NCBI GenBank assembly: GCA_963767735.1
Contig: CAVYES010000005.1
Location: forward strand, 224,001 to 288,000
Source: Candidatus Bathyarchaeota archaeon
GTDB lineage: Archaea > Thermoproteota > Bathyarchaeia > Bathyarchaeales > Bathycorpusculaceae
DNA: 64,000 nucleotides
Direction of reading: 5' to 3'
Part shown: in pieces, positions 27,302 through 41,983 of the stretch
Position numbering within the stretch: the first letter of the stretch is position 1
How the letters are laid out: each line of letters opens with the position of its first letter
Position numbers and translations under genes: made by a program
Notes under the pieces: generated by a model
Seen by the model: the letters and a program-made list of their open reading frames with translations, nothing else
What the model was told of the DNA's origin: nothing
Databases searched by the model: none

Positions 27302-28125
27302 TTAACCAAGCTTAAGATTTTTTCATGAATCTGCATGTTGCCTGAAGCTATGAAACTTAAAGTTTGTTTGGGATCCAACTCAATGTTTAATGCTTGATTC
27401 TCTGGCGATGTTACTATTCCGCCTGCCTCCTTTATAATGAGAAAGCCTGCCGCTACGTCTGTGGTTCGGAGTTTTCCACGTATGTCAACAAACGCATCCG
27501 TCAACCCATTTGCCACATAGCAGAGTTCAAGTGCGTTGGCGCCGAAATGGCGGATATGTTTTGTTTTGGCGATAAGTTCGGTCAGTTTTGGCGCAATTTC
27601 CTTGACTTTGTAAGTGTTTAAGTCTAAGCCTATCATTGCATCGTCCAACGTGGCCGTTTTTGAAGTCTGTATTTTTTCACCATCCCGATAAGCCCCTTCA
27701 CCCTTAAAGGCGGTGTAAGTTACCTTGTGGTATAGGTCAGAAACCATGCCTGCATAAACGTTTGCAAGCATGCGTTTGTCAGAAACTGCGATTGAGCAAG
27801 CATAGAAGGGTAAACCATGCATAAAATTTGTGCTTCCATCAATAGGATCAACCGTAACAAAGCATTCCTCTGCCGAAGCGCCGAACTTTTTTACCCCTGA
27901 CTCCTCGCTAATCAGCGTAAACGAAACGTGATGCTGCTTTAAGGTTTCAACGATTGCTGTTTCAGCCGCCAAATCCATCGGCTTCATAACGTCTCCACCG
28001 GCGCCCATGCCCAAGTTAGGTTGAGGCTCCCGGATTGTGGCTAAGCATGGCTGAATGCTGGCTCGTACATTGCTCTGGCATTCAAGCAGAATTTTTTGCC
28101 AGCCGTTTGGTTTTTGCGTTTTCAA
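27289..28125 (-). CDS. suhB: Inositol monophosphatase / FBPase (SuhB-like)
   Basis: ISEESG, DPIDGSTNF and DVAAGFLIIKEAGG motifs. Confidence 0.9.
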   Translation of the reverse strand: MKTQKPNGWQKILLECQSNVRASIQPCLATIREPQPNLGMGAGGDVMKPMDLAAETAIVETLKQHHVSFTLISEESGVKKFGASAEECFVTVDPIDGSTNFMHGLPFYACSIAVSDKRMLANVYAGMVSDLYHKVTYTAFKGEGAYRDGEKIQTSKTATLDDAMIGLDLNTYKVKEIAPKLTELIAKTKHIRHFGANALELCYVANGLTDAFVDIRGKLRTTDVAAGFLIIKEAGGIVTSPENQALNIELDPKQTLSFIASGNMQIHEKILSLVKCPC

Positions 28126-28264
28126 TGGAACACCTTCGCGTGTTTTCTAATATGCTGACAAGTTGATAAATGCTATACTTTGTATTTTTATGGGAAGGAC
28201 AAATATGCAGTTAGCCTCAGAAACATTTGACGTGAAAGCAAAGCAGATTATTTGAGCCTAACTC

Positions 28265-28280
28265 CCGAAACGCTTATATT
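28265..28280 (+). promoter_or_regulatory. BRE-TATA promoter of the aromatic operon leader
   Basis: CCGAAACG-CTTATATT about 40 nt upstream of the leader ATG. Confidence 0.65.
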
Positions 28281-28319
28281 TTCTGGATAACGTCCTATTG
28301 AGCAAGGTTCGAAGCTACC

Positions 28320-28403
28320 ATGTCCAATTGCAAAAGCAACAAAGAAAACAACACATCACAGTCACCTAGCTTCGACTACTATTTTTACGGTTATTTTTCT
28401 TAA
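28320..28403 (+). CDS. Putative Phe/Tyr-sensing leader peptide (27 aa)
   Basis: MSNCKSNKENNTSQSPSFDYYFYGYFS; 7 of the last 10 codons are Phe/Tyr; lies between the promoter and the Phe/Tyr operon. Confidence 0.8.
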   Translation: MSNCKSNKENNTSQSPSFDYYFYGYFS

Positions 28404-28441
28404 GCCCAGAACTGAAAAGTTTTTTGAGCAAAGTTCTGGGC
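28404..28441 (+). promoter_or_regulatory. Attenuator-like hairpin directly after the leader stop codon
   Basis: Perfect 10-bp stem GCCCAGAACT/AGTTCTGGGC with an 18-nt loop containing T6. Confidence 0.7.
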
Positions 28442-28459
28442 AAGGCATGGGTGTAAGAG

Positions 28460-29707
28460 ATGGCAAAAAATAATTCTTGCAGAAGAATTGTTGTTAAATT
28501 CGGTGGTTCTAGCTTAGCTGATCATGAGCGTCTCTTAAAAGCGGCGCTTGCGGTTGTAAACGAAGCAAAGGAAGGCACGCAGGTGGCTGTTGTAGTTTCT
28601 GCTATGGGTAAAACCACCGATGCCCTTATGGCGACAGCGAAAAACGCTTCCAATGGGAAACTGGAGAAAAAAGACTTAGACGATATTCTCTCGATGGGTG
28701 AGCGAACCAGCATAAGAATATTTGCTGCTGCGCTAAAGACCAACGGTGCAGAATCCTGCTATTTTGACCCGATAGACAATAACTGGCCAATAATAACTGA
28801 TTCTGCATTCCAAAACGCCAATCCAATCCTGAAAGATTGCGAAAAAAACATACGTGAATGCATACTGCCCATTTTGGAAAAAGGCGTCATACCTGTAGTG
28901 GCAGGGTTTCTTGGCAAAACTAAAGACGGCAAAATCACTACTCTCGGAAGAGGCGGCAGCGATACAACGGCGTTTATTTTAGCTGAAGCATTGAACGCTG
29001 ACGAAATCGTCTTAGTCACCGATGCAGACGGCATAATGTCAGGTGACCCAAAAATCGTCTCCAACCCAGAACGCCTAGAAGAAATCGATGTTAACACAAT
29101 AGTTGGACTTGCCGACTCAGGTGCTAAATTTATTCACAGTAAGGCCTTAAAGTACAAACCAAAAAATATCAACGTTAGAGTAATCAATCATGCACACGGC
29201 AACTTAACTAACGAGGGAACAGTAATCACGGGAGCGTTAGCAAGTGAACTTGACGCGGAAATAGCCCATCCTTTTCCAGTTGCTGAAATAACGGTGGTCG
29301 GAAACGGAATCTCCGCTAATCCGCAAATTATTCAAGAAATGGTGGAAAAAACAAAACAGCACTCCCTGCTTTTGGGCATGTCGATGAATACAAACTCAAT
29401 CTTACTTTACGCTTCTCAAGAAAAGAACTTAGACACTCTCTTCAACGATATTCACGATATCACAAAGCGCAACAAAGAAACCATCGCGATGGCGGTCAAA
29501 AAAGACCTGGTCTTCATAAAAACAAGCGGCGTCGGCTTAGAAGAAACCCACGGCATTATCGGTAAAATCAGCGAAGACCTCAGACTGAACGGCATAAACA
29601 TTTCTGGCATACTAACCATAACATCAAGCATCCTGCTTTTTGTAGATTGGGCTGAACGTGAAAAAGCTCTTAAGCTAATTAAAAACTCATTAAGGACTTC
29701 TAAATAA
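28460..29707 (+). CDS. lysC: Aspartate kinase with ACT domains
   Basis: VVKFGGSSL, VVSAMGKTTD and TTLGRGGSDTTA motifs. Confidence 0.92.
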   Translation: MAKNNSCRRIVVKFGGSSLADHERLLKAALAVVNEAKEGTQVAVVVSAMGKTTDALMATAKNASNGKLEKKDLDDILSMGERTSIRIFAAALKTNGAESCYFDPIDNNWPIITDSAFQNANPILKDCEKNIRECILPILEKGVIPVVAGFLGKTKDGKITTLGRGGSDTTAFILAEALNADEIVLVTDADGIMSGDPKIVSNPERLEEIDVNTIVGLADSGAKFIHSKALKYKPKNINVRVINHAHGNLTNEGTVITGALASELDAEIAHPFPVAEITVVGNGISANPQIIQEMVEKTKQHSLLLGMSMNTNSILLYASQEKNLDTLFNDIHDITKRNKETIAMAVKKDLVFIKTSGVGLEETHGIIGKISEDLRLNGINISGILTITSSILLFVDWAEREKALKLIKNSLRTSK

Positions 29708-29723
29708 CAAAAGGTGACAAAAC

Positions 29724-30515
29724 ATGAATCAAGGCAAAAAACGGCGATTAAAAAGAATCATGCGCGAAGACAACCGCACGGTAATCGTGCCCATGGATCA
29801 CGGCGTAACAATCGGACCAATCCAAGGAATAACCAACATGCAAGAAATAATCAATCAGCTCCTAAAAGGAGGCGTTGACGCTGTGCTGGTCCACAAAGGC
29901 ATAGCCAAGCTGGTAGATGTTGAAAACGCGGGTTTAATAGTGCAGTTGTCAGGCATGTCAAACCTTAGCCCGAACATAAACGGTAAAGTCCAAGTGTGCA
30001 GTGTTCAAGAAGCCATACGCTTAGGCGCAGACGCGGTCTCCGTGCACGTGAATGTTGGTTCACAAGATGAGGACAAAATGCTAAGCAACCTAGGCAAAGT
30101 ATCTGACGAATGCGACATATACGGTATCCCGCTGCTTGCCATGATGTACGCTCGAGGACCAAAAATACAAAATGAACATGCGCCAGAGGTGGTAGCTCAC
30201 GCTGCAAGAATCGGCGCTGAACTAGGTGCAGACATAATCAAAGCAAACTTCACAGGAGATATCGACACGTTCAAAACAGTCATCGAAAGCTGTCCAGTTC
30301 CAGTTGTAATTGCTGGAGGACCAAAATGCAAAACATCCCAAGAAATCCTTCAAACCACGCATGATTCAATAACGGCGGGGGCTGTAGGGCTCTCCATTGG
30401 ACGAAACGTGTTTCAACATGAGAACCCAACTTTAATTGTTAAGGCGCTCTCAGCAATCGTTCATGATGGGGTTAGCGTGGAGCAAGCGCTTAAAATTCTC
30501 GGTGAAAAAGCTTGA
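29724..30515 (+). CDS. aroA': 2-amino-3,7-dideoxy-D-threo-hept-6-ulosonate (ADH) synthase, DhnA family
   Basis: PMDHGVT, AARIGAELGADIIK and GRNVFQH motifs; adjacent to DHQ synthase II. Confidence 0.88.
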   Translation: MNQGKKRRLKRIMREDNRTVIVPMDHGVTIGPIQGITNMQEIINQLLKGGVDAVLVHKGIAKLVDVENAGLIVQLSGMSNLSPNINGKVQVCSVQEAIRLGADAVSVHVNVGSQDEDKMLSNLGKVSDECDIYGIPLLAMMYARGPKIQNEHAPEVVAHAARIGAELGADIIKANFTGDIDTFKTVIESCPVPVVIAGGPKCKTSQEILQTTHDSITAGAVGLSIGRNVFQHENPTLIVKALSAIVHDGVSVEQALKILGEKA

Positions 30516-31540
30516 AGGAACTTTGGATAGAAACATCGCTGGAAAAAAAACAAGCTTTAGAGCCGCTTGTCAGTCAGTTTAGCGATTGGGTGGTTGAAGA
30601 AGATAAAGCCACCTTTCTGGTAAACAAAAAAAACATAACCCTCGATATCTTTTCTCCCAAAAAAGCAGAGAAGCTCGAAAAAATTAATGTCTACAAGAAA
30701 ATTGTACGGATTTGTATCAGTGATAAGGAAACCGAAAACCAAATTGTTGAAGCATCTGAGCTTGGAGCAACCTACTTAATTATAAGTTGCGCAAACTGGC
30801 GTGTTATTCCGCTAGAAAACCTAATCGCGCGCATAAAGGGCAAAAGCAAATTAATCGCCGAAGTAACCAATGCCGAAGAGGCAAAGGTGGCACTTGAAAC
30901 CCTTGAATTAGGAACCGACGGCGTTTTGCTGAAAACTTCTAACCTTGAAGAAGTTCGCAAAACGGTTGCCATCGTTAAGCCAGAGGCTTTGAATCTTGAA
31001 ATGGCGGTCGGAAAAATAGTTTCCACAAAGCCTATCAGCACTGGTGCTCGGGTTTGTGTGGACACTTGTGAGTTGATGACACAGGGCGAAGGCATGCTCG
31101 TCGGCAGCCAAAGCGCAGGCTTATTCTTGGTGGAAGCAGAAGTCAACGAGAACCCTTATGTCGCGTCCCGACCATTTAGGGTTAATGCGGGGTCAGTATC
31201 CATGTACACATTAGGTACCCTGCAAACCACCCGTTATCTCCAAGAATTCAAAGCAGGAGATGAAGTTATAATTGTAAACCGCGAAGGCAAAACACGTAAA
31301 ACCAACGTGGGACGCATAAAAATCGAAATCAGACCGCTCATTCTCGTAGAGGCGCAGGTTGAAGGCAAAATCATAAAAACCATTCTGCAAAACGCCGAAA
31401 CCATCCGCCTAGTCACCCCAAAAGACTCAAAGCCAATAACCGAACTCAAACCCAACGACGATGTCATAGTGCACTTAGCTGCGAAGGGGGGCCGGCACTT
31501 CGGCGTATCCGTGCCTGAAGAAACGGTGATAGAGAAGTGA
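30512..31540 (+). CDS. aroB': 3-dehydroquinate synthase II
   Basis: WRVIPLENLIA, RVCVDTC, RPFRVNAG, LQNAETIRL and GRHFG motifs. Confidence 0.95.
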   Translation: MKELWIETSLEKKQALEPLVSQFSDWVVEEDKATFLVNKKNITLDIFSPKKAEKLEKINVYKKIVRICISDKETENQIVEASELGATYLIISCANWRVIPLENLIARIKGKSKLIAEVTNAEEAKVALETLELGTDGVLLKTSNLEEVRKTVAIVKPEALNLEMAVGKIVSTKPISTGARVCVDTCELMTQGEGMLVGSQSAGLFLVEAEVNENPYVASRPFRVNAGSVSMYTLGTLQTTRYLQEFKAGDEVIIVNREGKTRKTNVGRIKIEIRPLILVEAQVEGKIIKTILQNAETIRLVTPKDSKPITELKPNDDVIVHLAAKGGRHFGVSVPEETVIEK

Positions 31541-32220
31541 CAGCGAGAATCTGCGTTTCGATTCTCCCAAAAAACAATCTTGAAGCGTTAAGTCTCATCG
31601 AGACGGCAGAGAAAGCAAAGGCAAACCTCATAGAAGTTAGGCTAGACTGCCTTGAGTCACATAGAAACCTGTCAGATCTTGTTAAAGGCACCAAAATTCC
31701 CCTAATCGCCACGAACAAGCTAACAATTGAAAAAGGATTTTTTGCCGGAACTGAAACGGAGCGGCAGCAAACATTACTATCAGCTGCCAAGAACGGTTTC
31801 GAATATGTCGATGTTGACTTATTAAGCCTAAAACTTAATGAAACAATCGGCAAACTCAAGCCATTAGGCGCTAAACTAATCGTTTCTTTCCACAAATTCG
31901 ACGGCGTCTTAAGTGTTTCTGAAATGGAGCAGATTCTGAAGCAAGAAATGGCTTGTGGTGCTACCGTCTGTAAGATTGTGACAACAGCAGAGAAAATCGA
32001 AGACAACCTTGCAGTGCTAAATTTCGTTTCTGCCAATTCAGGAAAGTCCAAGATTGTCTGTTTCTGCATGGGTGAACAAGGCAAGGTTTCCAGGCTTCTT
32101 TCGCCGTTGTTTGGTGCCTTCTTCACTTTCGCTTCGCTTGAGCAAGGCAGCGAAACTGCTTCTGGGCAAATCTCTATTCAAGAACTGAGGGCAACTTTCA
32201 AGTTTTTGGAGAACAAGTAA
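31537..32220 (+). CDS. aroD: Type I 3-dehydroquinate dehydratase
   Basis: EVRLD, IVSFH, CKIV and CMGEQGKVSRL motifs. Confidence 0.92.
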   Translation: MTARICVSILPKNNLEALSLIETAEKAKANLIEVRLDCLESHRNLSDLVKGTKIPLIATNKLTIEKGFFAGTETERQQTLLSAAKNGFEYVDVDLLSLKLNETIGKLKPLGAKLIVSFHKFDGVLSVSEMEQILKQEMACGATVCKIVTTAEKIEDNLAVLNFVSANSGKSKIVCFCMGEQGKVSRLLSPLFGAFFTFASLEQGSETASGQISIQELRATFKFLENK

Positions 32221-32221
32221 G

Positions 32222-33079
32222 ATGGAAATTTCGGGAAAAACGCGCGTTTGCGGAGTAATCGGCGACCCAATAGAGTACACTCTTAGCCCAATTATGCATA
32301 ATGCAGCGTTTGAGGCTTTGGAAATAGACTACTTTTATTTAGCCTTTAAAGTAAAGTCCGCAGAAGTAGAAGACGCAATAAGAGGTATTCGGGCGCTGAG
32401 CATTCTTGGCTTAAACGTAACCATGCCCCACAAACACGCGGTCACCAAATATTTAGATGAGATAGACCCAACTGGCAAAGCCACAGGTTCCGTCAACACC
32501 ATCTTAAACAAGGATGGAAGATTGCTCGGCTTTAACACTGACGGCGTCGGAGCACTAAATGCGCTCGAACAGAACGGCGTGGAACTGAGAGGCAAAAAAG
32601 TGCTGGTGCTTGGAGCAGGCGGCGCTGCAAAAGCCATAGCATACACTCTCTCGCAAGCAGCGGACGAACTAGTGATTTTGAATCGTATACCTAAACCAGC
32701 AGCAGAGATAGCTGACCTCTTAAAACAAAAGTTCAACAAAAAAATCATCGCAGACCAACTCTCGCCAAGCACAATCAAAGAAAACCTTGCTGAATCTGAT
32801 GTGCTTATTAACGCCACTTCAGTCGGAATGAACCCAAACGCCAACCAAACCCCAGTGGCACTCGAGTGGCTCAAACCTGACTTGACAGTAATGGACATAG
32901 TTTACAATCCAATTGAAACAAAACTCGCAAAGGACGCTAAAGCCGTGGGAGCCAAGGTGGTAAGTGGGGTTGAAATGTTAATTTATCAGGGCGCTGCCTC
33001 GTTTGAAATTTGGACTGCCTGCAAGGCGCCAGTTGCGGTTATGAGGAAGGCAGCGCTTAATCACTTGCGGACGGTGTAG
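32222..33079 (+). CDS. aroE: Shikimate dehydrogenase
   Basis: LSPIMHN, NVTMPHK, NTDG, GAGGAA and MLIYQG motifs. Confidence 0.96.
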   Translation: MEISGKTRVCGVIGDPIEYTLSPIMHNAAFEALEIDYFYLAFKVKSAEVEDAIRGIRALSILGLNVTMPHKHAVTKYLDEIDPTGKATGSVNTILNKDGRLLGFNTDGVGALNALEQNGVELRGKKVLVLGAGGAAKAIAYTLSQAADELVILNRIPKPAAEIADLLKQKFNKKIIADQLSPSTIKENLAESDVLINATSVGMNPNANQTPVALEWLKPDLTVMDIVYNPIETKLAKDAKAVGAKVVSGVEMLIYQGAASFEIWTACKAPVAVMRKAALNHLRTV

Positions 33080-33083
33080 AAGA

Positions 33084-33953
33084 TTGACTGGAAAAGCTAC
33101 GGCTATCGCTCATGGCGCGGCAACAATCGTTAACGCAATGGCGCTCGGCAAAGGCGCAGCATTCGGAGTTGACCTGTGGACTAAGGCAGAAGTCAAATTA
33201 ACGGATGAGCCTCACGTTATCCAAGCAGAAATAACCTCTGACCCAAAAGAAAATACCGCCTTAATGGAGAAAACAGCAGCGCGGGTTCTCCAGAGGTTCA
33301 GTCTGGATAATAGTTTTGGAGCTAAAGTAAAAACTTGGTCAAACATTCCAATCGCTAAAGGATTAAAAAGCAGCAGCGCAGCAGCAAACGCAGTCGCCAT
33401 AGCAACGGTAGCTGCGTTGGATAAAACGCTTGACGACTTAGAAATCATAAAGTTAGGCGTAGACGCTGCCTTCGACGCAAAAGTGACTGTAACAGGCGCT
33501 TTCGATGACGCTTGCGCTTCATACTTCGGCGGCGCAGTTATCACAAACAATTTTAAACAAGAAATAGTTAAGCAGTTTCCGTTAATTGAAGATTCAGTAG
33601 TGCTTTTCCATATACCGCCTGAAAAGGCGTACTCAGCCGATTCAAACGTGCAGAGGCTACAAACGGTGAAAACGCTCGTTGAAGTCGCATATAAGGAAGC
33701 CTTAGAAGGCAAGGTTTGGGAAGCATTGACGCTTAACGGCTTGATTTACTCTTCAGCCTCAGGATACAACCCTTCAATCGCGATTGATGCGTTAGCTGCT
33801 GGAGCAATGGCAGCTGGGCTTTGCGGCAAGGGACCAGCAGTAACAGCAGTTACACCGAAGAATAAAATTGAAGAAGTAAAAACTGTCTTACAAAAGTACA
33901 GCGGCGAAATCTTACAGGCTAACATCAATCGTGAAAAAGCTAAGGTGCTATAG
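33084..33953 (+). CDS. aroK: Archaeal (GHMP-family) shikimate kinase
   Basis: IPIAKGLKSSSAAANA and TGAFDDACASYFGG motifs. Confidence 0.95.
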   Translation: MTGKATAIAHGAATIVNAMALGKGAAFGVDLWTKAEVKLTDEPHVIQAEITSDPKENTALMEKTAARVLQRFSLDNSFGAKVKTWSNIPIAKGLKSSSAAANAVAIATVAALDKTLDDLEIIKLGVDAAFDAKVTVTGAFDDACASYFGGAVITNNFKQEIVKQFPLIEDSVVLFHIPPEKAYSADSNVQRLQTVKTLVEVAYKEALEGKVWEALTLNGLIYSSASGYNPSIAIDALAAGAMAAGLCGKGPAVTAVTPKNKIEEVKTVLQKYSGEILQANINREKAKVL

Positions 33954-33956
33954 CAA

Positions 33957-35285
33957 ATGACGGACATAATAATTAAGAAAACTGAACGGTTAAACGGCGA
34001 GGTTTGTGCTCCTCCATCAAAATCTTACACACAGAGAATAGTCATAACGGCTGCTTTATCTGAAGGGGTTTCCAAAGTGTCAAATCCGCTTTTATCGGAA
34101 GACACCCAAGCAACCGTGCGCGCTATCACCGCTTTAGGTGCAAACATGGCAAGAAGTGAAGGCTGCTGGACCATCACGGGAGCAAACCCGCTTATAAATG
34201 CTAAAGCGCCTGTTGACTGCGGTGAATCCGGCGCCACGTTACGTTTCATGATGCCTGTGGCAGCTCTAGCACCTGACCCATCAACCCTGATTTTTAATGG
34301 TTCTCTTGATCGCAGACCCATCGAGCCTTTGCTTAAAAGCCTTGATGAACTCGGAGCCAAAGCTTGCACCAAAAAAATTCGCGTCCAAGAAAACGGAAAA
34401 GAAAAAACGAAAGATGCCGTTTTAGTTGAAGGCGGAGGCATCTTGGGCGGGGAGACCTCTATTGCTGGAGATGTTAGTTCTCAGTTCATTTCTGGATTAA
34501 TGTTCGCGTGCCCAATGGCAAAAGTGGATACAGAAGTCACTATAACAACTCCGCTTGAGTCCTCGGATTACGTTAAAATGACTTGGGATGTACTTGCAAA
34601 GCATGAAATTCAACTTGAAGTTCATGATAACTTTAAACGCATAAAGATTCCAGCTAATCAAACGTATAAGCCCCAAGACTTACGGGTGCCCGGAGATTTT
34701 TCTTCAGCTGCCTTTCTCCTCTCTGCCGCGGCAATAACCAGCTCTAAGGTTCAGATAAACAATCTTGAATACAAAACTGTTCAAGGTGACAAGGCAATTC
34801 TGGGAATCCTCAAGCAAATGGGAATTGAGGGAAAAGTATGCCAAAGCAGCGTTGAAATAAACGGAACCGGATGTCCGCTTGAACCTCTCAATGTTGATGC
34901 AAGAAATATTCCAGACCTAGTTCCCGCCTGTGCCGCCTTAGCATGTTACGCTAAGGGCACATCCAAAATCACTGGTGCCCAAAGGCTCAAACTTAAAGAG
35001 TCAGATAGGTTGAACTCGCTTTATCTTGAGCTGAGAAAGATGGGTGCAAAAATAAAGGTAGATGCAACCAGCTTAACCATAGATGGCCCCTGCGCCCTGC
35101 ATGGCGCCGTGATTAATCCACACAACGATCACCGAATCGCGATGGCTTGTGCGGTTGCAGCTTTAGGCGCAGAAGGGCAAACTACTATTCAAAATGCCGA
35201 GTGCGTTAGAAAGTCTTATCCGCAGTTCTTCACTCATTTAAAGCAAATAGGAGCTGAAATTGTTGGCGGGAAATTCGATTGGTAA
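33957..35285 (+). CDS. aroA: EPSP synthase
   Basis: PPSKSYTQR, GESGATLRF, SSQFISGL, KESDR and DHRIAM motifs. Confidence 0.96.
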   Translation: MTDIIIKKTERLNGEVCAPPSKSYTQRIVITAALSEGVSKVSNPLLSEDTQATVRAITALGANMARSEGCWTITGANPLINAKAPVDCGESGATLRFMMPVAALAPDPSTLIFNGSLDRRPIEPLLKSLDELGAKACTKKIRVQENGKEKTKDAVLVEGGGILGGETSIAGDVSSQFISGLMFACPMAKVDTEVTITTPLESSDYVKMTWDVLAKHEIQLEVHDNFKRIKIPANQTYKPQDLRVPGDFSSAAFLLSAAAITSSKVQINNLEYKTVQGDKAILGILKQMGIEGKVCQSSVEINGTGCPLEPLNVDARNIPDLVPACAALACYAKGTSKITGAQRLKLKESDRLNSLYLELRKMGAKIKVDATSLTIDGPCALHGAVINPHNDHRIAMACAVAALGAEGQTTIQNAECVRKSYPQFFTHLKQIGAEIVGGKFDW

Positions 35286-36369
35286 AGAGTTCATAGTAAC
35301 CACTTTCGGCGAAAGCCACGGCAAAATCGTTGGCGTAGTATTGGACGGTTGTCCCGCGGGATTGCCTCTTTCTGAAGCGGACATTCAAGTGGAATTGGAT
35401 AGGCGTATTCCTGCAGAGCCGAAAATTGTTTCGGGAAGAATCGAAAAAGACATCGTCAACATTCTTTCGGGCGTTTTTAACGGTTTTACAACTGGTGCTC
35501 CAATCGCTTTGATGGTTGAGAATAAAGAGGTTGACTCAAGCGATTATGAAGCAATCAAGGATCTGCCAAGACCAGGACACGCCGATTACCCCGCCCAAGT
35601 AAAGTATGGCGGCTTCAACGATTACCGAGGCGGCGGACGCTTCTCAGGCAGAGTCACAGTCGCACTCATCATGGCTGGGGCAATAGCCAAAAAATTGCTA
35701 AGCAAATTCGACGTTGACGTTTTAGCTTACACCCGAGCAGTTGGCAAAGTAAAAAGTGATAAAAAGTTTAGTGCCGAGGAGATCCGAAAGAATAGGTACG
35801 TAGCGGTTACTCGTTGTCCAGACTTCGCCTGTGCAGAGAGAATGGAGGAAGCTATAGTTACTGCGAAAAAAGACGGTGATAGTGTCGGCGGGGTAGTTGA
35901 ATGCATTGCCCTAAACGTTCCAGTGGGAGTTGGCGAGCCACTGTTTGATTCACTTGATGCCGATTTAGCAAAAGCATTGTTTGATATTCCCGCCGTAAAA
36001 GGCGTAGAGTTCGGCTTGGGGTTTAGAGTTGCAGAGTTAAAGGGTTCAGAAAGCAACGACCCCTACCTTATGCAAAGCGGAAAAGTTGCAACAGCAACAA
36101 ATAACGCAGGCGGAATCTTAGGCGGAATATCCAACGGTATGCCAATCATGATGCAGGTAGCGATAAAACCAACACCTTCTGTCGGCAAAGAACAGAAAAC
36201 CGTTAACCTCTCTACGATGGAAGACATGAGTCTTCGCATAAAGGGTAGGCATGACCCCTGTGTTGTCCCAAAAGCCGTTCCCGCCGTAGAATCTGCAGTT
36301 GCTATAACCTTAGCTGACCATATGATTCGCGCGGGCTTTATACCGAAAGTTTTGGAGAGAAAGAAATGA
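35260..36369 (+). CDS. aroC: Chorismate synthase
   Basis: TFGESHG, PRPGHAD, RGGGRFSGR and GRHDPC motifs. Confidence 0.97.
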   Translation: MLAGNSIGKEFIVTTFGESHGKIVGVVLDGCPAGLPLSEADIQVELDRRIPAEPKIVSGRIEKDIVNILSGVFNGFTTGAPIALMVENKEVDSSDYEAIKDLPRPGHADYPAQVKYGGFNDYRGGGRFSGRVTVALIMAGAIAKKLLSKFDVDVLAYTRAVGKVKSDKKFSAEEIRKNRYVAVTRCPDFACAERMEEAIVTAKKDGDSVGGVVECIALNVPVGVGEPLFDSLDADLAKALFDIPAVKGVEFGLGFRVAELKGSESNDPYLMQSGKVATATNNAGGILGGISNGMPIMMQVAIKPTPSVGKEQKTVNLSTMEDMSLRIKGRHDPCVVPKAVPAVESAVAITLADHMIRAGFIPKVLERKK

Positions 36370-36629
36370 TGAACGAAATCAAACAGCTAAGAGAAAAAAT
36401 AGACCAAATTGACGAGCAAATCCTAAATGCCCTCAGCGAAAGAGCCAAAATATGCAGTGCTATTGGTTTGGTTAAGAAAAAAAATGGCGTGCAAATAAGA
36501 GATACTTCCAGAGAAAATGAGGTTTATCTGCGCGTCAAGGAAAAAGCTGTTGAATTTCGCTTGGACCCCATTAAAGTTGAGGCAGTTTACCGCGAAATAG
36601 TTAATATGTGCAGTGCTGTTCAAGAGTAG
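36366..36629 (+). CDS. aroQ: Chorismate mutase (AroQ type)
   Basis: LREKIDQIDEQILNALSER...RDTSRE. Confidence 0.92.
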   Translation: MMNEIKQLREKIDQIDEQILNALSERAKICSAIGLVKKKNGVQIRDTSRENEVYLRVKEKAVEFRLDPIKVEAVYREIVNMCSAVQE

Positions 36630-36658
36630 AAAATACCTCTCGAAGGAGAGTTAAACCT

Positions 36659-37738
36659 GTGCTCTACGAGATAAACGAGAAAGCCATAAGGCTCGAAAAT
36701 CAAGGAAAAAAGATAATACGCCTAAACCTAGGGGACCCAGACTTAGCTACGCCTAACGAGATAATTGAAGCAGCATACGCAGCGATGAAGGCGGGCAAAA
36801 CAAAGTATTCTTCCTCTTACGGCGAGACTAAACTTCGTGAAAAGCTCGCTAAGTTCCACGGTGTTAAAGCTGAAAACGTAGTTATTACGCCCGGTTCGAA
36901 ATGGGGCATATTCGCCACCATGTATCTTATGTTGAAAGCTGGGGGGAACGTTGTTATCCCGACGCCTTACTGGACAGCTTACGATTTAATTGCTAAAAGT
37001 CTTGGTGTTCAAACTAAACTGTTGCGGACAGAGATGGAAGACGGCTGGAAAATAGATTTGGATAAACTGGAAGCCATGATTGACAAGAACACACGCATGA
37101 TAATACTCAACAATCCAAACAATCCCACAAGCAAAGTCATGGATGCAAAAACACTTGACGGCATAGTAGAAATTGCAAACAGGAAAAACGTTACCATTCT
37201 CTCAGACGAAGTATATGGAACAATCAGCTTTGTTAAAACAAAAAGCATCCTGGAATATGACAACGATCACACTCACATTCTTACCACTGGCTTCTCCAAA
37301 ACATTTAGTATGACAGGATGGAGAATCGGCTATATTATAGCAAACAAAAAGCTTGTTGACAACATTACAAAACTCAATCAAATAACCATCAACAACGTCC
37401 CAGTATTCATTCAAGAAGCCGCATTAAAAGGGCTGGAAATGCAAAAGCAACTTGCCACAAAAATAAAGGAAGAATACAAAGAGCGAGCGATTATGGCAAG
37501 CAAAACCTTAGAGAAGGCAGGATTCTCATTCACAAAACCCGAAGCGCCATTCTACGTTTTTCCCAAACGCAAAGGCATAAACTCTGAAAAATTCACCTTA
37601 GACCTTCTTGACAAAGGCGTAGCAGTAGCTCCAGGAACAGCGTTCGGCGATTACCCAGAGCACTTCCGCATCTCGTTAACTGCGCCCAGAGCTGAAATAA
37701 AGACAGCGTTAGACATCATAAGCGAGGCGCTTGGATGA
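36659..37738 (+). CDS. Class I/II PLP-dependent (aromatic/aspartate) aminotransferase
   Basis: NNPNNPT, SDEVY and FSKTFSMTGWRIGY motifs; GTG start with AAGGAG RBS. Confidence 0.93.
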   Translation: MLYEINEKAIRLENQGKKIIRLNLGDPDLATPNEIIEAAYAAMKAGKTKYSSSYGETKLREKLAKFHGVKAENVVITPGSKWGIFATMYLMLKAGGNVVIPTPYWTAYDLIAKSLGVQTKLLRTEMEDGWKIDLDKLEAMIDKNTRMIILNNPNNPTSKVMDAKTLDGIVEIANRKNVTILSDEVYGTISFVKTKSILEYDNDHTHILTTGFSKTFSMTGWRIGYIIANKKLVDNITKLNQITINNVPVFIQEAALKGLEMQKQLATKIKEEYKERAIMASKTLEKAGFSFTKPEAPFYVFPKRKGINSEKFTLDLLDKGVAVAPGTAFGDYPEHFRISLTAPRAEIKTALDIISEALG

Positions 37739-38613
37739 GAATCGCCATAATTGGCGCGGGAAAAATGGGTGTTTGGTTCGCAAAATTTTTCAATTCAAAA
37801 GATTACTCTGTGACATTGGCAGACCGCAAGAAAGAGAAAATAGCTAATTTAAAAAAGGAATTGCCTGTTAGGCTGACTACTGATTTTAAGGAAGCCGTTG
37901 CTGATGCCGACCAAGTTTTACTCTGCGTATCCATAAACGCTTTAGAAGAAGTAGCAAAAACTATTAGTCCTGCACTTCACCGAGGGCAAGTCGTCATGGA
38001 TATATGCTCAATTAAAGAAGCTCCTGTCCAAGTTATGCATGAGAACATAAAAGGCGCCTTGGTTCTGGGAACTCATCCAGTTTTCGGTCCGGGAAGCAAT
38101 GGTGTCAAACACAAAGCGTACGTTCTAACTCCAACCAACGCTGAAGAGGAAAAATTTGCTGCCGAATTCAAGACGTGGCTAGAACAAGAAGAAGCGCGTG
38201 TCTTTGTCATGTCTCCGAAAAAGCATGATGAACTTATGTCAGTTGTTTTGGGTTTACCGCATTTTCTGGGCTTAGTTGCCTGCGAAACGCTTCTGGAACA
38301 AAAAGATTTTCCCGAAACAAAAGAGGTTGCGGGCACTACATATCGGATGCTATTCACTTTGGCTGAAGCAACCGCGCTTGAAACACCTGACCTTTATGCA
38401 AGCCTACAAACAAATCTGCCTGAACTGGGCGAAATCGAAGACTTGTTTATGGCTAAAGCAAAAGAATGGCTCAACCTAATAAAAAACAATGATACAGAAG
38501 CAATCGTTAAAAGAATGGCGCAATTGAAAGCGAAACTGACTGAAGTAGACCCAGACTTCGCTAAGTCTTATGAAGCAATGTATAAAATGCTGGAATCAAC
38601 GGAAAAATCATAG
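37735..38613 (+). CDS. tyrA: Prephenate dehydrogenase
   Basis: GAGKMG, DICSIK, HPVFGP and HDELMSVVLGLPH motifs. Confidence 0.94.
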   Translation: MRIAIIGAGKMGVWFAKFFNSKDYSVTLADRKKEKIANLKKELPVRLTTDFKEAVADADQVLLCVSINALEEVAKTISPALHRGQVVMDICSIKEAPVQVMHENIKGALVLGTHPVFGPGSNGVKHKAYVLTPTNAEEEKFAAEFKTWLEQEEARVFVMSPKKHDELMSVVLGLPHFLGLVACETLLEQKDFPETKEVAGTTYRMLFTLAEATALETPDLYASLQTNLPELGEIEDLFMAKAKEWLNLIKNNDTEAIVKRMAQLKAKLTEVDPDFAKSYEAMYKMLESTEKS

Positions 38614-38614
38614 C

Positions 38615-39427
38615 TTAAGCCGCTTTCGGGTAAGAACCCAATATCCTAACGAATATCGCATATTTCTCTAATGCTTTCAACGCTTCTGCACATTGAGGTT
38701 CGGTTCGATGTCCCTCAAAATCAAGGTAAAAATTGTATTCCCACGCCGTCTTCTTTGTGGGTCTTGATTCAATTTTGGTCAAGTTAATGTTTCGCTTAGC
38801 AAATTCTCCGAGTGCATGGTAGAGTGAGCCTGGCTCGTGTTTTGCTGAGAAAATTATAGATGTTTTGTCTTTTCCTGTAGGAGGAGAATCTTCAGTTGAT
38901 AACACAAAGAAGCGGGTATAGTTCTCAGGGTTGTCCGCGATGTCTTCTGCGAGAATGCTCATGCCGTAGAGGTCGGCTGCTCTTTCGCTTGCAATCGCCG
39001 CAGCATTCTTTAAGCTTTTTTCTTTGAGCATCTTGACGCTGCCAGCCGTGTCATAGGTGGGTATGAGTTCGCGTCCAAACTCCTCCAAGAAACTTCGGCA
39101 CTGCGCCAGCGCCTGCGGATGGGAGTAAACAACCTTGATGTCTGCTAAGGCGGTGCCTGGGTTTGCGATGAGGCAATGCTCGATTTTCACGATGACTTCC
39201 CCGCACACTTTCAAATCGTACTTCAGGAAGAGGTCGTAGTTTTGGGTTACGCTGCCTTCTAAGCTGTTTTCAACGGGGACGACGCCGAACCTGGACTCCT
39301 GTGTGCAGACCCTGTCGAAAACGTCTTTGAAGTCCTTGCAGGGGTTAACTTCTGTTTTGGCTCCAAAGAATTGAAAGACTGCGCTTTCGCTGTAAGCGCC
39401 CCGTTCGCCTTGGAAGGCTACTTTCAC
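38615..39427 (-). CDS. pheA: Prephenate dehydratase with ACT domain
   Basis: QGERGAYSE, PVENSLEGSV, SHPQALAQC, NYTRF and LTKIESRP motifs. Confidence 0.96.
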   Translation of the reverse strand: MKVAFQGERGAYSESAVFQFFGAKTEVNPCKDFKDVFDRVCTQESRFGVVPVENSLEGSVTQNYDLFLKYDLKVCGEVIVKIEHCLIANPGTALADIKVVYSHPQALAQCRSFLEEFGRELIPTYDTAGSVKMLKEKSLKNAAAIASERAADLYGMSILAEDIADNPENYTRFFVLSTEDSPPTGKDKTSIIFSAKHEPGSLYHALGEFAKRNINLTKIESRPTKKTAWEYNFYLDFEGHRTEPQCAEALKALEKYAIFVRILGSYPKAA

Positions 39428-40941
39428 TTTTTGTTCCCTCGATTCTTAATCAAGAGTTTGTTTATACCATTTATCATTGCTTCAACACTAGCCATAACGA
39501 TATCTTCTCTTGCTGCGCGTGCGGAAACGATGTTGCCTTTTTCATCCTCAACTTTAATGACAACTTCTGCCACGGCGTTTGAGCCGCCCGTTATTGCTTC
39601 AAGCCGGTACTCTCTGAGCCGTATGTTTTCTAGATTATTGGTTATTTTTTGGATGGCTTTCAGTACGGCGTCAACTGGGCCTACGCCTGTTTCTGCTGCA
39701 ACGTATTCTTTTCCATCTAAAACGAGCCTTACTGAAGCGGTTGGAATAACTTTTATGCCCGTTATAACGGCTAAGTCACTTAAGTCAACGATTTTTTCTT
39801 CCCCTATCACTTCACCCATAACTGCTGAAGTTAACGCAAATAAATCAGCGTCAGTCACCATCTTACCCTTATCACCTAACTCTTTGACACGTTGAACAAT
39901 TTCCTGCAGCTGCTGTTCAGTTGGGTGGATGCCTATCTCTTCCAGTTCAGCTTTTACGCCGCGCGTACCAGCTAGTTTTCCTGCAACTAATTTTCTTGTG
40001 CGTCCCACTAACTCCGGATTTATCGGCTCGAAGGTTAATGGTTTCTCCGTTACTCCCCTCGTGTGAATGCCTGATTCATGGGCAAAAGCGTTTTCTCCTA
40101 CAATGGCCTTGTTAGCTTGCACATTTATACCGGTCAACGATGAAACCAATCTGGAAGTGCCGTATAATAACCGTGAGTTTACACCTGTCTTGTACTTGTA
40201 AATCAGATGTAAAGCCATAACTACTTCTTCAAGTGAAGCGTTCCCAGCGCGCTCACCTAACCCGTTGACAGCAACGTGCACCTGATCGGCGCCAGCTTCG
40301 ACTGCGGCTAAGGAGTTTGCAACGGCTAAACCGAAATCGTCATGGCAATGCGTGCTAATGGGAACGTTAACTACAGTTTTTAGTTCTTCAATGAGTTTGA
40401 TTGTTGTTTTCGGAATCATTATGCCTACGGTGTCAGGAACGTTTAGTATGTCCATTCCTGCTTTCTCTGCTGCTTGGCAAACTTGCTTTAAAAAGGGCAT
40501 TTCTGAGCGCGTGGCGTCCATTGGTGAAAACTCGCATTTGAAACCATGCTTCTTAACATACTCAACAGATTCCACGGTTGAAGACAACACCTGTTCAGGC
40601 GTTAAGTTCACGGCGTACCTCATCTGCACAAGCGAAGTTGGAATAAAAACGTGAATTAAGTCAACGTCGCAGTCAATTGCAGCGTCAATATCGCCTTTTG
40701 TTGCACGCGTCAAAGCGCAGATTTCTGGTTCTAACCCAGCTTTAGCAATCTCCTTGACAACTTTTTTTTCGCCCTCAGAAGAGCTTGGAAAACCGGCTTC
40801 GATAACGTCGACGCCTAGCTTGCTTAATTGACTTGCAATCTCAATCTTATCGTCTGCAGTTAAAGTAACGCCGGGTGTTTGCTCGCCATCTCTTAGTGTA
40901 GTGTCAAAAATACGGATACGTTTTGAAGTTTTATCGTTCAT
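39424..40941 (-). CDS. leuA: 2-isopropylmalate / citramalate synthase
   Basis: DTTLRDGEQ, HCHDDFG, GERAGN and AHESGIH motifs; C-terminal regulatory GVGPVDA. LeuA versus CimA not resolvable here. Confidence 0.85.
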   Translation of the reverse strand: MNDKTSKRIRIFDTTLRDGEQTPGVTLTADDKIEIASQLSKLGVDVIEAGFPSSSEGEKKVVKEIAKAGLEPEICALTRATKGDIDAAIDCDVDLIHVFIPTSLVQMRYAVNLTPEQVLSSTVESVEYVKKHGFKCEFSPMDATRSEMPFLKQVCQAAEKAGMDILNVPDTVGIMIPKTTIKLIEELKTVVNVPISTHCHDDFGLAVANSLAAVEAGADQVHVAVNGLGERAGNASLEEVVMALHLIYKYKTGVNSRLLYGTSRLVSSLTGINVQANKAIVGENAFAHESGIHTRGVTEKPLTFEPINPELVGRTRKLVAGKLAGTRGVKAELEEIGIHPTEQQLQEIVQRVKELGDKGKMVTDADLFALTSAVMGEVIGEEKIVDLSDLAVITGIKVIPTASVRLVLDGKEYVAAETGVGPVDAVLKAIQKITNNLENIRLREYRLEAITGGSNAVAEVVIKVEDEKGNIVSARAAREDIVMASVEAMINGINKLLIKNRGNKK

Positions 40942-40945
40942 TTTT

Positions 40946-41983
40946 TCAACCAGTTTTCACTGTTAAGGCTGCAGCAATGGCTTCTGCCATCCCCACGGTC
41001 GTGGCGTTGCCGCCGCAGTCTGGAACAGTTTGACCGTTACGTAACGCGTATACTACCCCATTCTCTATTGCAGCGCCTGCTTTGATGCATTTTTTGTCGC
41101 TGTATTTTTCGCCGAGCCACTCCAGCATCATCTTCGCGGAAAGTATCATGGAGATTGGGTTTGCGGTGTGTTTTCCTGCTCTGTTTGGTGCTGAACCGTG
41201 GATAGGTTCGAAGAGTGCAAAGTTGTCGCCTATGTTTGCGCCTGGCGCCATACCCAACCCGCCGATAAGTTGGGCTGCTTCGTCTGAGAGGATGTCGCCG
41301 AACATGTTGCAGGTGCAGAAGACATCGAATTCTTGGGGCTCTTTTATCAAACGCATAGATGCTGCGTCAACGTATAACTCGTTGAAGGCGATGTCTGGGT
41401 ACTGTTTTGCCGTTTCGCGGCATATGCTGGCGAATAAACCGTCGGTTACGCGCATAACGTTGGCTTTGTGTATGGCGGTTACTTTCTTTTTGCCATTTCG
41501 CAGACGTGCGATTTCGAAGGCTTTCTTGGCTATGCGCTCACAATTTGCTCTTGTGATGATTCTCATGCATATGGTTGTGTCGTTGCCTACGGTGAATTCT
41601 AAGCCCTTGTAAACATCCTCAGTGTTCTCTCTAACAAACATCATATCTATGTCAGGTCGAGCCACAGGAACGTTAGGATAAGCTTTCAACGGACGCAAAT
41701 TGGCGTACAAATCGAACATCAGTCTGAGTTTAACTATGACGTCGGCTGCGGTTTCGCCTACGGGTCCCTTTAGGCAAGCGTGGGATTCTTTGATTTTTTG
41801 CACTGTGTCTTCGGGTAATGCGGCGCCTCTTTTAGCTAAGGTTGCGTCGCCCGCTTCAGCCTCAATAATTTTGAGGTTTAATCCGAATTTTTTCTGTGCT
41901 GAGTCTAGAACTTTTAGGGTAGCTTCGGTTAATTCTGGTCCGATGCCGTCGCCTGGGATTAGGGATATTTTGTATTCTGTCAT
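40946..41983 (-). CDS. leuB: 3-isopropylmalate dehydrogenase family
   Basis: PGDGIGPE, RENTE, NMFGDILSD and EPIHGSAP motifs. Confidence 0.9.
   Translation of the reverse strand: MTEYKISLIPGDGIGPELTEATLKVLDSAQKKFGLNLKIIEAEAGDATLAKRGAALPEDTVQKIKESHACLKGPVGETAADVIVKLRLMFDLYANLRPLKAYPNVPVARPDIDMMFVRENTEDVYKGLEFTVGNDTTICMRIITRANCERIAKKAFEIARLRNGKKKVTAIHKANVMRVTDGLFASICRETAKQYPDIAFNELYVDAASMRLIKEPQEFDVFCTCNMFGDILSDEAAQLIGGLGMAPGANIGDNFALFEPIHGSAPNRAGKHTANPISMILSAKMMLEWLGEKYSDKKCIKAGAAIENGVVYALRNGQTVPDCGGNATTVGMAEAIAAALTVKTG

Follow-up and report, generated by a model that had tools for sequence, protein, structure and literature searches.

A short leader open reading frame (ORF) rich in phenylalanine and tyrosine codons was found directly ahead of the aspartate kinase (AK) gene of an aromatic amino acid operon in a 64,000-nucleotide stretch of a Candidatus Bathyarchaeota archaeon (GCA_963767735.1, contig CAVYES010000005.1, positions 224,001 to 288,000), hereafter the window. 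The leader and the RNA helices that flank it very probably form a sensor of Phe/Tyr supply that is read by the translating ribosome. Control of the AK-led aromatic operon of Bathyarchaeia by this sensor is the best explanation of the element as a whole and is held with moderate confidence. Two helices make up its architecture: helix 1 joins the leader's own ribosome-binding region to the first aromatic codon, and helix 2 extends from the stop codon to a few nucleotides before the Shine-Dalgarno (SD) sequence of AK. Regarding the output step, we tentatively favour a protective role for helix 2, in which a ribosome terminating at the leader stop would expose a U-tract to termination or cleavage. 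The coordinates of all features are collected in Table 1.

The leader peptide, MSNCKSNKENNTSQSPSFDYYFYGYFS, is 27 aa long. Its first 17 codons specify no aromatic residue, and its final 10 codons include 3 Phe codons (TTC, TTT and TTT) and 4 Tyr codons (TAC, TAT, TAC and TAT). The position of the ORF and this uneven distribution, with both synonymous codons of each amino acid in use, had been described in a first-pass annotation of the sequence and were read off directly. The other elements described there were also present, namely the perfect 9-bp pairing of helix 1, whose 3' arm spans the codon of the first Phe (28371-28373), the perfect 10-bp stem of helix 2, whose first base directly follows the TAA, the T6 in the loop of helix 2 and the GGGTG ribosome-binding site (RBS) of AK. 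Within the genome, ORFs of similar composition were rare, yet they did exist: among 3,679 non-genic ATG ORFs of 20-35 codons, 17 had at least six aromatic residues in the last 12 and three had at least seven, which is the number in the leader. The decisive evidence that the ORF did not arise by chance was its conservation in relatives.

In the large surveys, a locus was considered to carry an aromatic leader if a short upstream ORF had at least five aromatic residues among its last 12. The pooled set comprised 126 AK-ortholog loci, 117 of them unique, and 99 of the unique loci carried a Phe/Tyr-rich upstream ORF. These loci were spread over 13 family labels of the class; a lack of such conservation had been named in the first-pass annotation as a finding that would speak against its proposal. 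The first sample, 41 genomes of the genus and order, contained 27 AK orthologs, all of which (27/27) were preceded by an ORF with 6-9 aromatic residues in the last 12; these ORFs were 24-29 codons long and ended 44-77 nt before AK. None of the paralogous AKs located after dapB-like genes (0/3) had a Phe/Tyr-rich ORF. Among the named records, 59 of 60 Bathyarchaeia orthologs (AK identity 48-94%) had at least five aromatic residues, the exception being L080 (L and f numbers are our handles for loci and families). Further loci from the window's own order all had the ORF (5/5). A class-wide sample of 200 genomes yielded 39 orthologs from other orders, 35 of which were fetched and 34 of which were usable, one being cut by a contig end. 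At least five aromatic residues were found at 17 of these 34 loci (families f14, f16, f17, f19, f27, f30, f32, f34 and f37), four at two loci and three or fewer at 15. At 20 loci with AK identity of 42% or less (L090-L110 without L103), the best upstream ORF had no more than four aromatic residues; these loci were mostly from Hadarchaeales, Jordarchaeia and haloarchaea, together with L098 and L104 (labelled Bathyarchaeota/Bathyarchaeia) and the archaeal loci L101 and L105. Judging from its conservation at the head of the aromatic operon, the leader ORF is almost certainly translated.

The peptide tails diverged strongly among lineages and yet stayed rich in aromatic residues; therefore, the conserved trait was Phe/Tyr richness near the C-terminus and not the sequence itself. 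The aromatic fraction was 0.65 in the last 12 residues, compared with 0.09 in the peptide heads and 0.053 in the operon proteins. In 77 unique peptides, the aromatic frequency by distance from the stop was 0.18 at -1, 0.90 at -2, 0.84 at -3, 0.57 at -4, 0.94 at -5, 0.78 at -6 and 0.90 at -7. This profile, in which aromatic codons continue up to -2 and are rare at -1, fits stalls that must spare helix 2. Synonymous codons were also used selectively. In the close group of 59 sequences, the first Phe codon, which pairs with the 5' untranslated region (UTR), was TTC in 58, and U-ending codons were favoured at three later positions of the cluster (TTT 54/56, TAT 55/59 and TAT 41/46). By contrast, the operon's own genes used TTC in 54 of 100 cases and TAC in 36 of 59. 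The U-ending preference maps to 28382-28398 of the window and yields a conserved U-rich run inside the ORF. Apparently, selection at the nucleotide level favoured either a U-rich run in the cluster, as an RNA or DNA signal, or slower wobble-read codons, and the data fit both.

RNAalifold, applied unprompted to an alignment of the 59 sequences, returned exactly two helices, one joining the 5' UTR to the Ser-Phe-Asp codons over 7 bp and one corresponding to the post-stop hairpin (9 bp). In helix 1, the core TCGAAGC paired with GCTTCGA in 58-59 of the 59 sequences, and the variants were G-U wobbles. In 67 of 76 sequences, the strongest pairing of the 5' UTR with the ORF body overlapped the codon for the first aromatic residue. 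Arms of unrelated sequence had the same role in L074 (7 bp just ahead of Phe-Phe-Phe) and L081 (10 bp over Asp-Phe-Phe), and the GAAGC/GCUUC core recurred in L077 and L083. Helix 2 was found still more widely: a hairpin of -10 kcal/mol or lower, with its first pair between -3 and +5 nt relative to the stop codon's end, was present in 93 of 99 unique leaders and was built from more than 30 different 5'-arm hexamers. In the window, the z-score relative to shuffles was -2.6 for the spacer hairpin and -1.9 for the whole 175-nt region.

Across the 19 pairs of both helices, 95.4% of the alignment cells were standard pairs, compared with 26-46% when the partners were slid by 1-3 columns. Nearly all one-sided changes led to G-U or U-G pairs (AU 49/GU 10, UA 49/UG 9, CG 55/UG 4 and AU 51/GU 8). 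Because such wobbles keep the pairs of the sense-strand RNA but are mismatches in DNA, these changes point to RNA pairing. Double changes were observed at 5 of the 19 pairs, which beat 500 of 500 shuffles, the sequences being related. The deep lineages provide stronger structural evidence than the close group. A search for covariation had been suggested in the first-pass annotation, and both stems proved to be conserved RNA helices across orthologous leaders.

When folding was constrained by placing a ribosome at the first aromatic codon, in the middle of the cluster, at the penultimate codon or at the stop, neither helix showed a conserved alternative partner. The 12-mer at 28299-28310 does recur at 28426-28437 with one change, as had been pointed out earlier; its reading as a sign of alternative pairing was not sustained, as relatives shared only a GGTTC/RGTTC core and no sequence complementary to the repeat was identified. 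The upstream copy begins 5' of the predicted transcript start. Pairing of the freed 5' arm with the 5' arm of the hairpin was also considered and rejected, since it amounted to 5 bp at most by eye and was not seen in the constrained folds. A likeness of the hairpin loop and of GGTTCGAA to a K-turn, a C/D box or a tRNA T-loop, judged by eye, was discarded because the required pairs were absent.

The arrangement of the two helices suggests how the ribosome could read the leader. A ribosome awaiting Phe-tRNA or Tyr-tRNA anywhere in the cluster would cover the 3' arm of helix 1, keeping the leader RBS region open, and helix 2 would be out of its reach. With the stop codon in its A site, the ribosome would unwind about half of helix 2, and only such a ribosome would melt this helix. 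Helix 1 would thus be closed after fast passage and open during a stall, and the co-transcriptional folding of helix 2 would be blocked only by a ribosome at the stop. When Phe and Tyr are plentiful, the first ribosome would reach the stop and cover the 5' arm of helix 2 while the 3' arm leaves RNA polymerase. The U-tract and the 3' arm would then be single-stranded and exposed to oligo-U and aCPSF1/FttA-type termination or cleavage before AK could be expressed, and the operon would be off. After release of the ribosome, helix 1 would close and block further translation of the leader, limiting it to a single round. When Phe- or Tyr-tRNA is scarce, the ribosome would stall upstream, and helix 2 would fold immediately and hide the U-tract and the cleavage site. 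The operon would be transcribed, and AK would be translated from its free SD.

The T6 in the loop of helix 2 contains the run of at least five U residues that is taken as the mark of an archaeal oligo-U/aCPSF1 (FttA) signal, and it is a candidate for such a signal. The parts of PMC7515710 used here describe archaeal termination as using U-rich tracts with no requirement for a hairpin, the U-tracts pausing RNA polymerase for cleavage by aCPSF1; FttA favours U-rich nascent RNA according to the corresponding excerpt of PMC13681488. A T-run of at least five was located between the stop and the AK start in 41 of 73 unique spacers, ending +21 to +25 from the stop in 34 of these 41, and T4 was the longest run in 18 of the 73. 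Gene ends elsewhere in the genome were represented by a crude set, ORFs of at least 200 codons. T-runs after these ends were not preceded by hairpins: the mean minimum free energy (MFE) was -2.5, compared with -1.9 for shuffles, and values of -8 kcal/mol or lower occurred in 3% versus 1%. Runs of at least five T within 80 nt past 1,074 gene ends were only modestly enriched (38% versus 33% for A-runs). Because the gene-end T-runs lack hairpins and archaeal termination is described as hairpin-independent, helix 2 does not appear to be a generic terminator. A scan of 28100-28600 for bacterial consensus terminators gave 0 terminator-like sites, the T6 being in the loop and no such tract following the stem. 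Sigma-70-like promoter matches in a bacterial-type scan were set aside as irrelevant to an archaeal host.

A peat RNA library provided one 157-nt contig that spans 28314-28470 with 3 mismatches and runs from the leader through the hairpin to nucleotide 11 of AK. The remainder of AK had no cover in the same RNA run, and other parts of the stretch were covered by contigs from DNA runs. This contig gives a weak hint of an abundant short leader RNA.

Several points weigh against the proposed sensor or against parts of it. The RNA data consist of assembled contigs, which cannot define transcript ends; DNA may contaminate RNA libraries, and the uncovered parts are uninformative. The host is uncultured, and the reach of the ribosome used in the geometry is that of bacterial ribosomes. 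In families f26 (7/7) and f35 (8/8), the AK orthologs had no Phe/Tyr-rich ORF. The low aromatic frequency at -1 was mostly confined to the window's group and f7, and several deep lineages end in Tyr. Helix 1 had no significance in the f7 group (z of at least 0). Covariation was thin in the close group, where most pairs were invariant, and kinship alone can beat shuffles without any structure. No T-run of four or more was present in 14 of the 73 unique spacers, and in several lineages the U-tract stood after the hairpin and not in its loop, which has the look of a bacterial terminator and suggests the opposite polarity. Relatives of these two kinds are not cleanly explained by any single model. 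Moreover, the favoured model predicts expression from a leader that is not translated, in contrast to classical attenuators.

The opposite, classical polarity was judged unlikely, although a number of observations agree with it. Helix 2, with the following U-tract where present, would be a terminator or pause site; a ribosome stalled at the last aromatic codons, or a queue of ribosomes, would block the hairpin and allow read-through in starvation, and a fed ribosome would leave, so that the hairpin stops transcription. The stop adjoins the hairpin in the 93 of 99 leaders mentioned above, the aromatic codons extend to -2, and helix 1 could work as a single-round lock here too. In L025, L074, L084-85, L151, L154, L156 and L159, the hairpin is followed by U4-U6 and then the SD, which is the shape of a bacterial intrinsic terminator. 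However, the window and most of its group have no U-tract after the hairpin, and the consensus scan found no terminator-like site. By bacterial geometry, stalls at -2 or further upstream should miss the 5' arm, and an aromatic codon at -1 is present at a frequency of only 0.18. The gene-end T-runs without hairpins and the description of archaeal termination as hairpin-independent in the part of PMC7515710 cited above also argue against this polarity. Finally, under severe starvation the ribosome would halt as early as the first Phe codon, about 30 nt from the hairpin, and the operon would be turned off. A somewhat lower probability was given to translational attenuation, in which the full-length mRNA would always be made and the U-rich cluster, clamped near the AK RBS by helix 2, would pair with the purine-rich region from the SD to the AUG until a stalled ribosome freed the site; in some lineages, the CU-rich 3' arm may replace the cluster in this pairing. 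Such a mechanism needs no U-tract, which fits the spacers that have none (14/73), and in L078 the hairpin holds an anti-SD sequence paired to the SD. In the naked-RNA ensemble, the AK SD was predicted to pair with the Phe/Tyr cluster in many sequences, with a probability of 0.6-0.9 where GGGUG was correctly located. The mean unpaired probability from the AK SD to the AUG (n=76) increased from 0.41 in naked RNA to 0.52 when a ribosome was placed five codons ahead of the stop, but the effect is small, its Wilcoxon p-values overstate the significance because the sequences are related, and a composition-matched shuffled cluster gave 0.39, which indicates that the pairing is unspecific. Furthermore, MFE folds of the spacer alone left the SD region unpaired in most of the window's group. 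Strong sequestration of the SD was not supported. The first-pass annotation had proposed that ribosome position determines the formation of the stem and the exposure of the U-tract or RBS; the geometry does link both helices to ribosome position, and strong masking of the AK RBS was not supported.

Two further explanations were given low probabilities. Action at the level of the peptide, either by TnaC-like arrest, with the nascent chain sensing free Phe/Tyr from within the exit tunnel, or as a small functional protein, was considered improbable. Within the window's group, an S-F-[DEG]-Y...F-Y-Y motif is well preserved, and the last residue of 25 of the 77 unique peptides is Pro, which is known from bacterial arrest peptides. 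However, the deep lineages keep only the aromatic composition and no motif. Pairing with the 5' UTR fixes the nucleotide sequence of the Ser-Phe-Asp codons, and the ORF always lies directly ahead of the aromatic operon. Least probable was the explanation that the inverted repeats are DNA operators bound by a transcription factor and that the ORF is incidental. It would account for helix arms in the close group that are far more conserved than pairing needs and for the nearly invariant promoter 15-mer. On the other hand, the one-sided G-U wobbles would not pair in DNA or on the opposite strand, distant lineages form the hairpin from unrelated arms, and the ORF, aromatic bias included, is retained at 99 of the 117 unique loci.

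The ribosome-read sensor was also compared with known leader systems. Like the ribosome-mediated attenuators of bacteria (pheA, trp, his, leu and thr leaders), it has a short ORF rich in codons for the pathway product before a biosynthetic operon and conserved helices placed so that the position of the ribosome decides which of them forms. Helix 1 occludes the RBS of the leader itself, as a helix of the E. coli trp leader does. Unlike these attenuators, the leader belongs to an archaeon, the window has no hairpin-plus-U terminator, and no mutually exclusive antiterminator was found; the two helices are independent and do not overlap, the regulatory codons reach the penultimate codon, and the hairpin begins directly after the stop. 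Of the attenuator hallmarks, the leader ORF rich in product codons was found, its translation being judged from conservation, and the terminator and antiterminator were not. The Rfam covariance models gave no leader-family match in the window at the gathering score, and at E values up to 10 the sole match in 28200-28520 was unrelated and on the other strand. Because there was no terminator, no antiterminator and no Rfam match, the element was not filed among the bacterial attenuator families. It was rated as using the same principle as bacterial leader-peptide attenuators in a new domain and with a different architecture.

Factor-dependent control by leaders is represented by E. coli tnaC, which involves Rho, and by Salmonella mgtL and similar leaders. 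As in these systems, a ribosome at or near the leader stop would decide the access of a termination factor to stop-adjacent RNA, the U-rich stretch here serving aCPSF1/FttA. Unlike in these systems, the factor would be an archaeal beta-CASP nuclease and not Rho, and the spacer to the first gene is 44-74 nt long and consists mostly of a strong hairpin; factor dependence is proposed by analogy. In ermC and cat, leader ORFs act by translational attenuation. Mycobacterial poly-Cys upstream ORFs, according to the part of bioRxiv 10.1101/834739 considered, respond to an amino acid ahead of a biosynthetic operon. The Bathyarchaeia leader resembles these three in that a stalled ribosome on a short upstream ORF would alter the folding that governs the RBS of the next gene, and it differs in that the modelled change in RBS exposure is small and unspecific. 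The T6 fits the U-rich signal described for archaeal oligo-T intrinsic or aCPSF1-assisted terminators; unlike them, it is located in a 5' leader, within the loop of a strong hairpin, and not at a gene end. According to the portion of PMC8448881 drawn on here, no transcription attenuation or antitermination is known in archaea. No archaeal leader-peptide attenuator was found in a literature search whose scope did not extend to subscription journals and supplements, so an earlier description is possible. It is conceivable, although doubtful, that the element is the first case of ribosome-mediated leader-peptide attenuation in Archaea, ancient and widespread in Bathyarchaeia, with two independent helices and a hairpin that serves as an ON element guarding against oligo-U/FttA/aCPSF1 termination.

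Upstream of the leader, all or at least 90% of the 59 aligned sequences agreed at most positions of the promoter 15-mer (28265-28279), and the 15-mer occurs once in the 3.04-Mb genome. It is conserved beyond what a generic promoter would need. The distance from the start of the TATA box to the leader ATG was 39-49 nt in 57 of 59 sequences, which, by general archaeal promoter geometry, implies a 5' UTR of about 10-19 nt; the first base of the RNA-library contig, 28314, hints weakly at the transcript start. The SD-like AGGT at 28305-28308 matches the anti-SD sequence at the 3' end of the genome's own 16S rRNA, as does the GGGTG of AK. The 16S rRNA matches the archaeal model, and the host is a Bathyarchaeia archaeon; its close named public relatives are all Bathyarchaeia/Bathyarchaeota metagenome-assembled genomes from soil, peat, sediment, hot springs and termite guts.

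Table 1. Features of the leader region and of the operon that it precedes (positions in the window)
Feature	Position	Strand	Basis and remarks
Predicted archaeal promoter: B recognition element (BRE)-like CCGAAAC, then TATA box TTATATTTT	28265-28282	+	Conservation; role assigned from general archaeal promoter architecture
Predicted short leader 5' UTR	28304-28319	+	Probable start near 28304, ~30 nt after the TATA start
Helix 1, 5' arm (A), between SD-like motif and leader ATG	28309-28317	+	Sequence, alignment, RNAalifold
Leader ORF, 27 codons and TAA	28320-28403 (ATG 28320; TAA 28401-28403)	+	Sequence, conservation in relatives
Helix 1, 3' arm (B), over Ser17-Phe18-Asp19 codons	28367-28375	+	Sequence, alignment, RNAalifold
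Phe/Tyr codon cluster F18-F26, U-rich	28371-28397	+	Aromatic fraction, codon preference
Helix 2 hairpin, adjoining the stop codon	D 28404-28413; loop 28414-28431; E 28432-28441	+	Sequence, folding, alignment
T6 tract in hairpin loop	28420-28425	+	Candidate archaeal oligo-U pause, termination or aCPSF1 signal, after the parts of PMC7515710 used here
Shine-Dalgarno GGGTG of AK	28449-28453	+	7 nt past the stem, 6 nt before AK ATG 28460
Eleven-gene operon	28460-38613	+	Pfam matches, gene spacing
Operon genes 1-4: aspartate kinase (AK, with ACT domains); DeoC-family aldolase (ADH synthase); dehydroquinate synthase II; type I dehydroquinase (aroD)			Pfam
Operon genes 5-8: shikimate dehydrogenase (aroE); GHMP-family (shikimate) kinase; EPSP synthase; chorismate synthase			Pfam
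Operon genes 9-11: chorismate mutase; aminotransferase; prephenate dehydrogenase			Pfam

The 11 genes of the operon overlap or are separated from their neighbours by no more than 16 nt. Together they constitute the archaeal aspartate-semialdehyde/6-deoxy-5-ketofructose-1-phosphate (DKFP) route and the shikimate pathway to aromatic amino acids, ending in the Phe/Tyr branch, and the AK at the head of the operon is dedicated to the aromatic pathway. The leader keeps its place at the head of the pathway genes despite differences in gene order: L081 has the order leader, AK, aspartate-semialdehyde dehydrogenase gene (asd), ADH synthase and dehydroquinate synthase (DHQS), and L027 has the order leader, AK, DHQS and aroD. 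The asd gene of L081 (3733-4812, Pfam) lies between AK and ADH synthase, and the operon of the window has no asd. An ORF of ~346 aa occupies the asd position in f7 (L122-L129) and is probably asd, as judged from the ORF layout alone. In f5, DHQS-II directly follows the leader and AK, and ADH synthase is on a separate contig. The prephenate dehydratase gene (pheA, with an ACT domain) lies outside the leader-headed operon of the window; it is convergent to the operon and located 3' of leuB-like and leuA-like genes (38615-41983, minus strand).

The loci that have no Phe/Tyr-rich ORF include L141-L145, L147 and L149 of f26, L148, L152, L166, L167, L169, L171, L174 and L176 of f35, and L080. Many of them have another conserved small upstream ORF. 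Its motif resembles G-D-x-x-F-G-D-G-V-Y in f26 and L080 and G-G-H-L-Y-W-H in f35, and the open frame of AK is 50-90 codons longer in f26. These alternative small ORFs could be a second type of leader or an N-terminal extension.

In the window's genome, the aromatic operon seems to be the sole bearer of such a leader. Two genome scans for a small biased ORF with a hairpin and a gene behind it returned no other case, and the hairpin, helix 1 and the promoter 15-mer are each single-copy. The best other small-ORF candidates in the genome precede unrelated genes and were discarded. No Trp-rich leader ORF was found at the trp operon (contig C4, 180900-181100, near 181 kb), and no His-rich leader ORF was found at the his operon (contig C5, 184221-184500, near 184 kb). 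In families that have no AK ortholog, 9 loci with ADH synthase genes (L132-L140) showed no such ORF within the stored upstream flank, which was 1.5 kb in 8 loci and ~225 nt in L134 (contig end). A match of 13 aa upstream of ADH synthase in L135 was judged to be due to chance.

With roughly one hundred Bathyarchaeia genomes preserving its codons, the place of its stop and the helices on either side, the leader is a natural test object for the questions of whether archaea regulate genes via the translating ribosome and how such regulation interplays with oligo-U and FttA termination. At ~180 nt, the element is compact enough for transfer to a tractable archaeon or to an in vitro system. It bears on the control of aromatic amino acid synthesis in an abundant uncultured lineage of soil and sediment.

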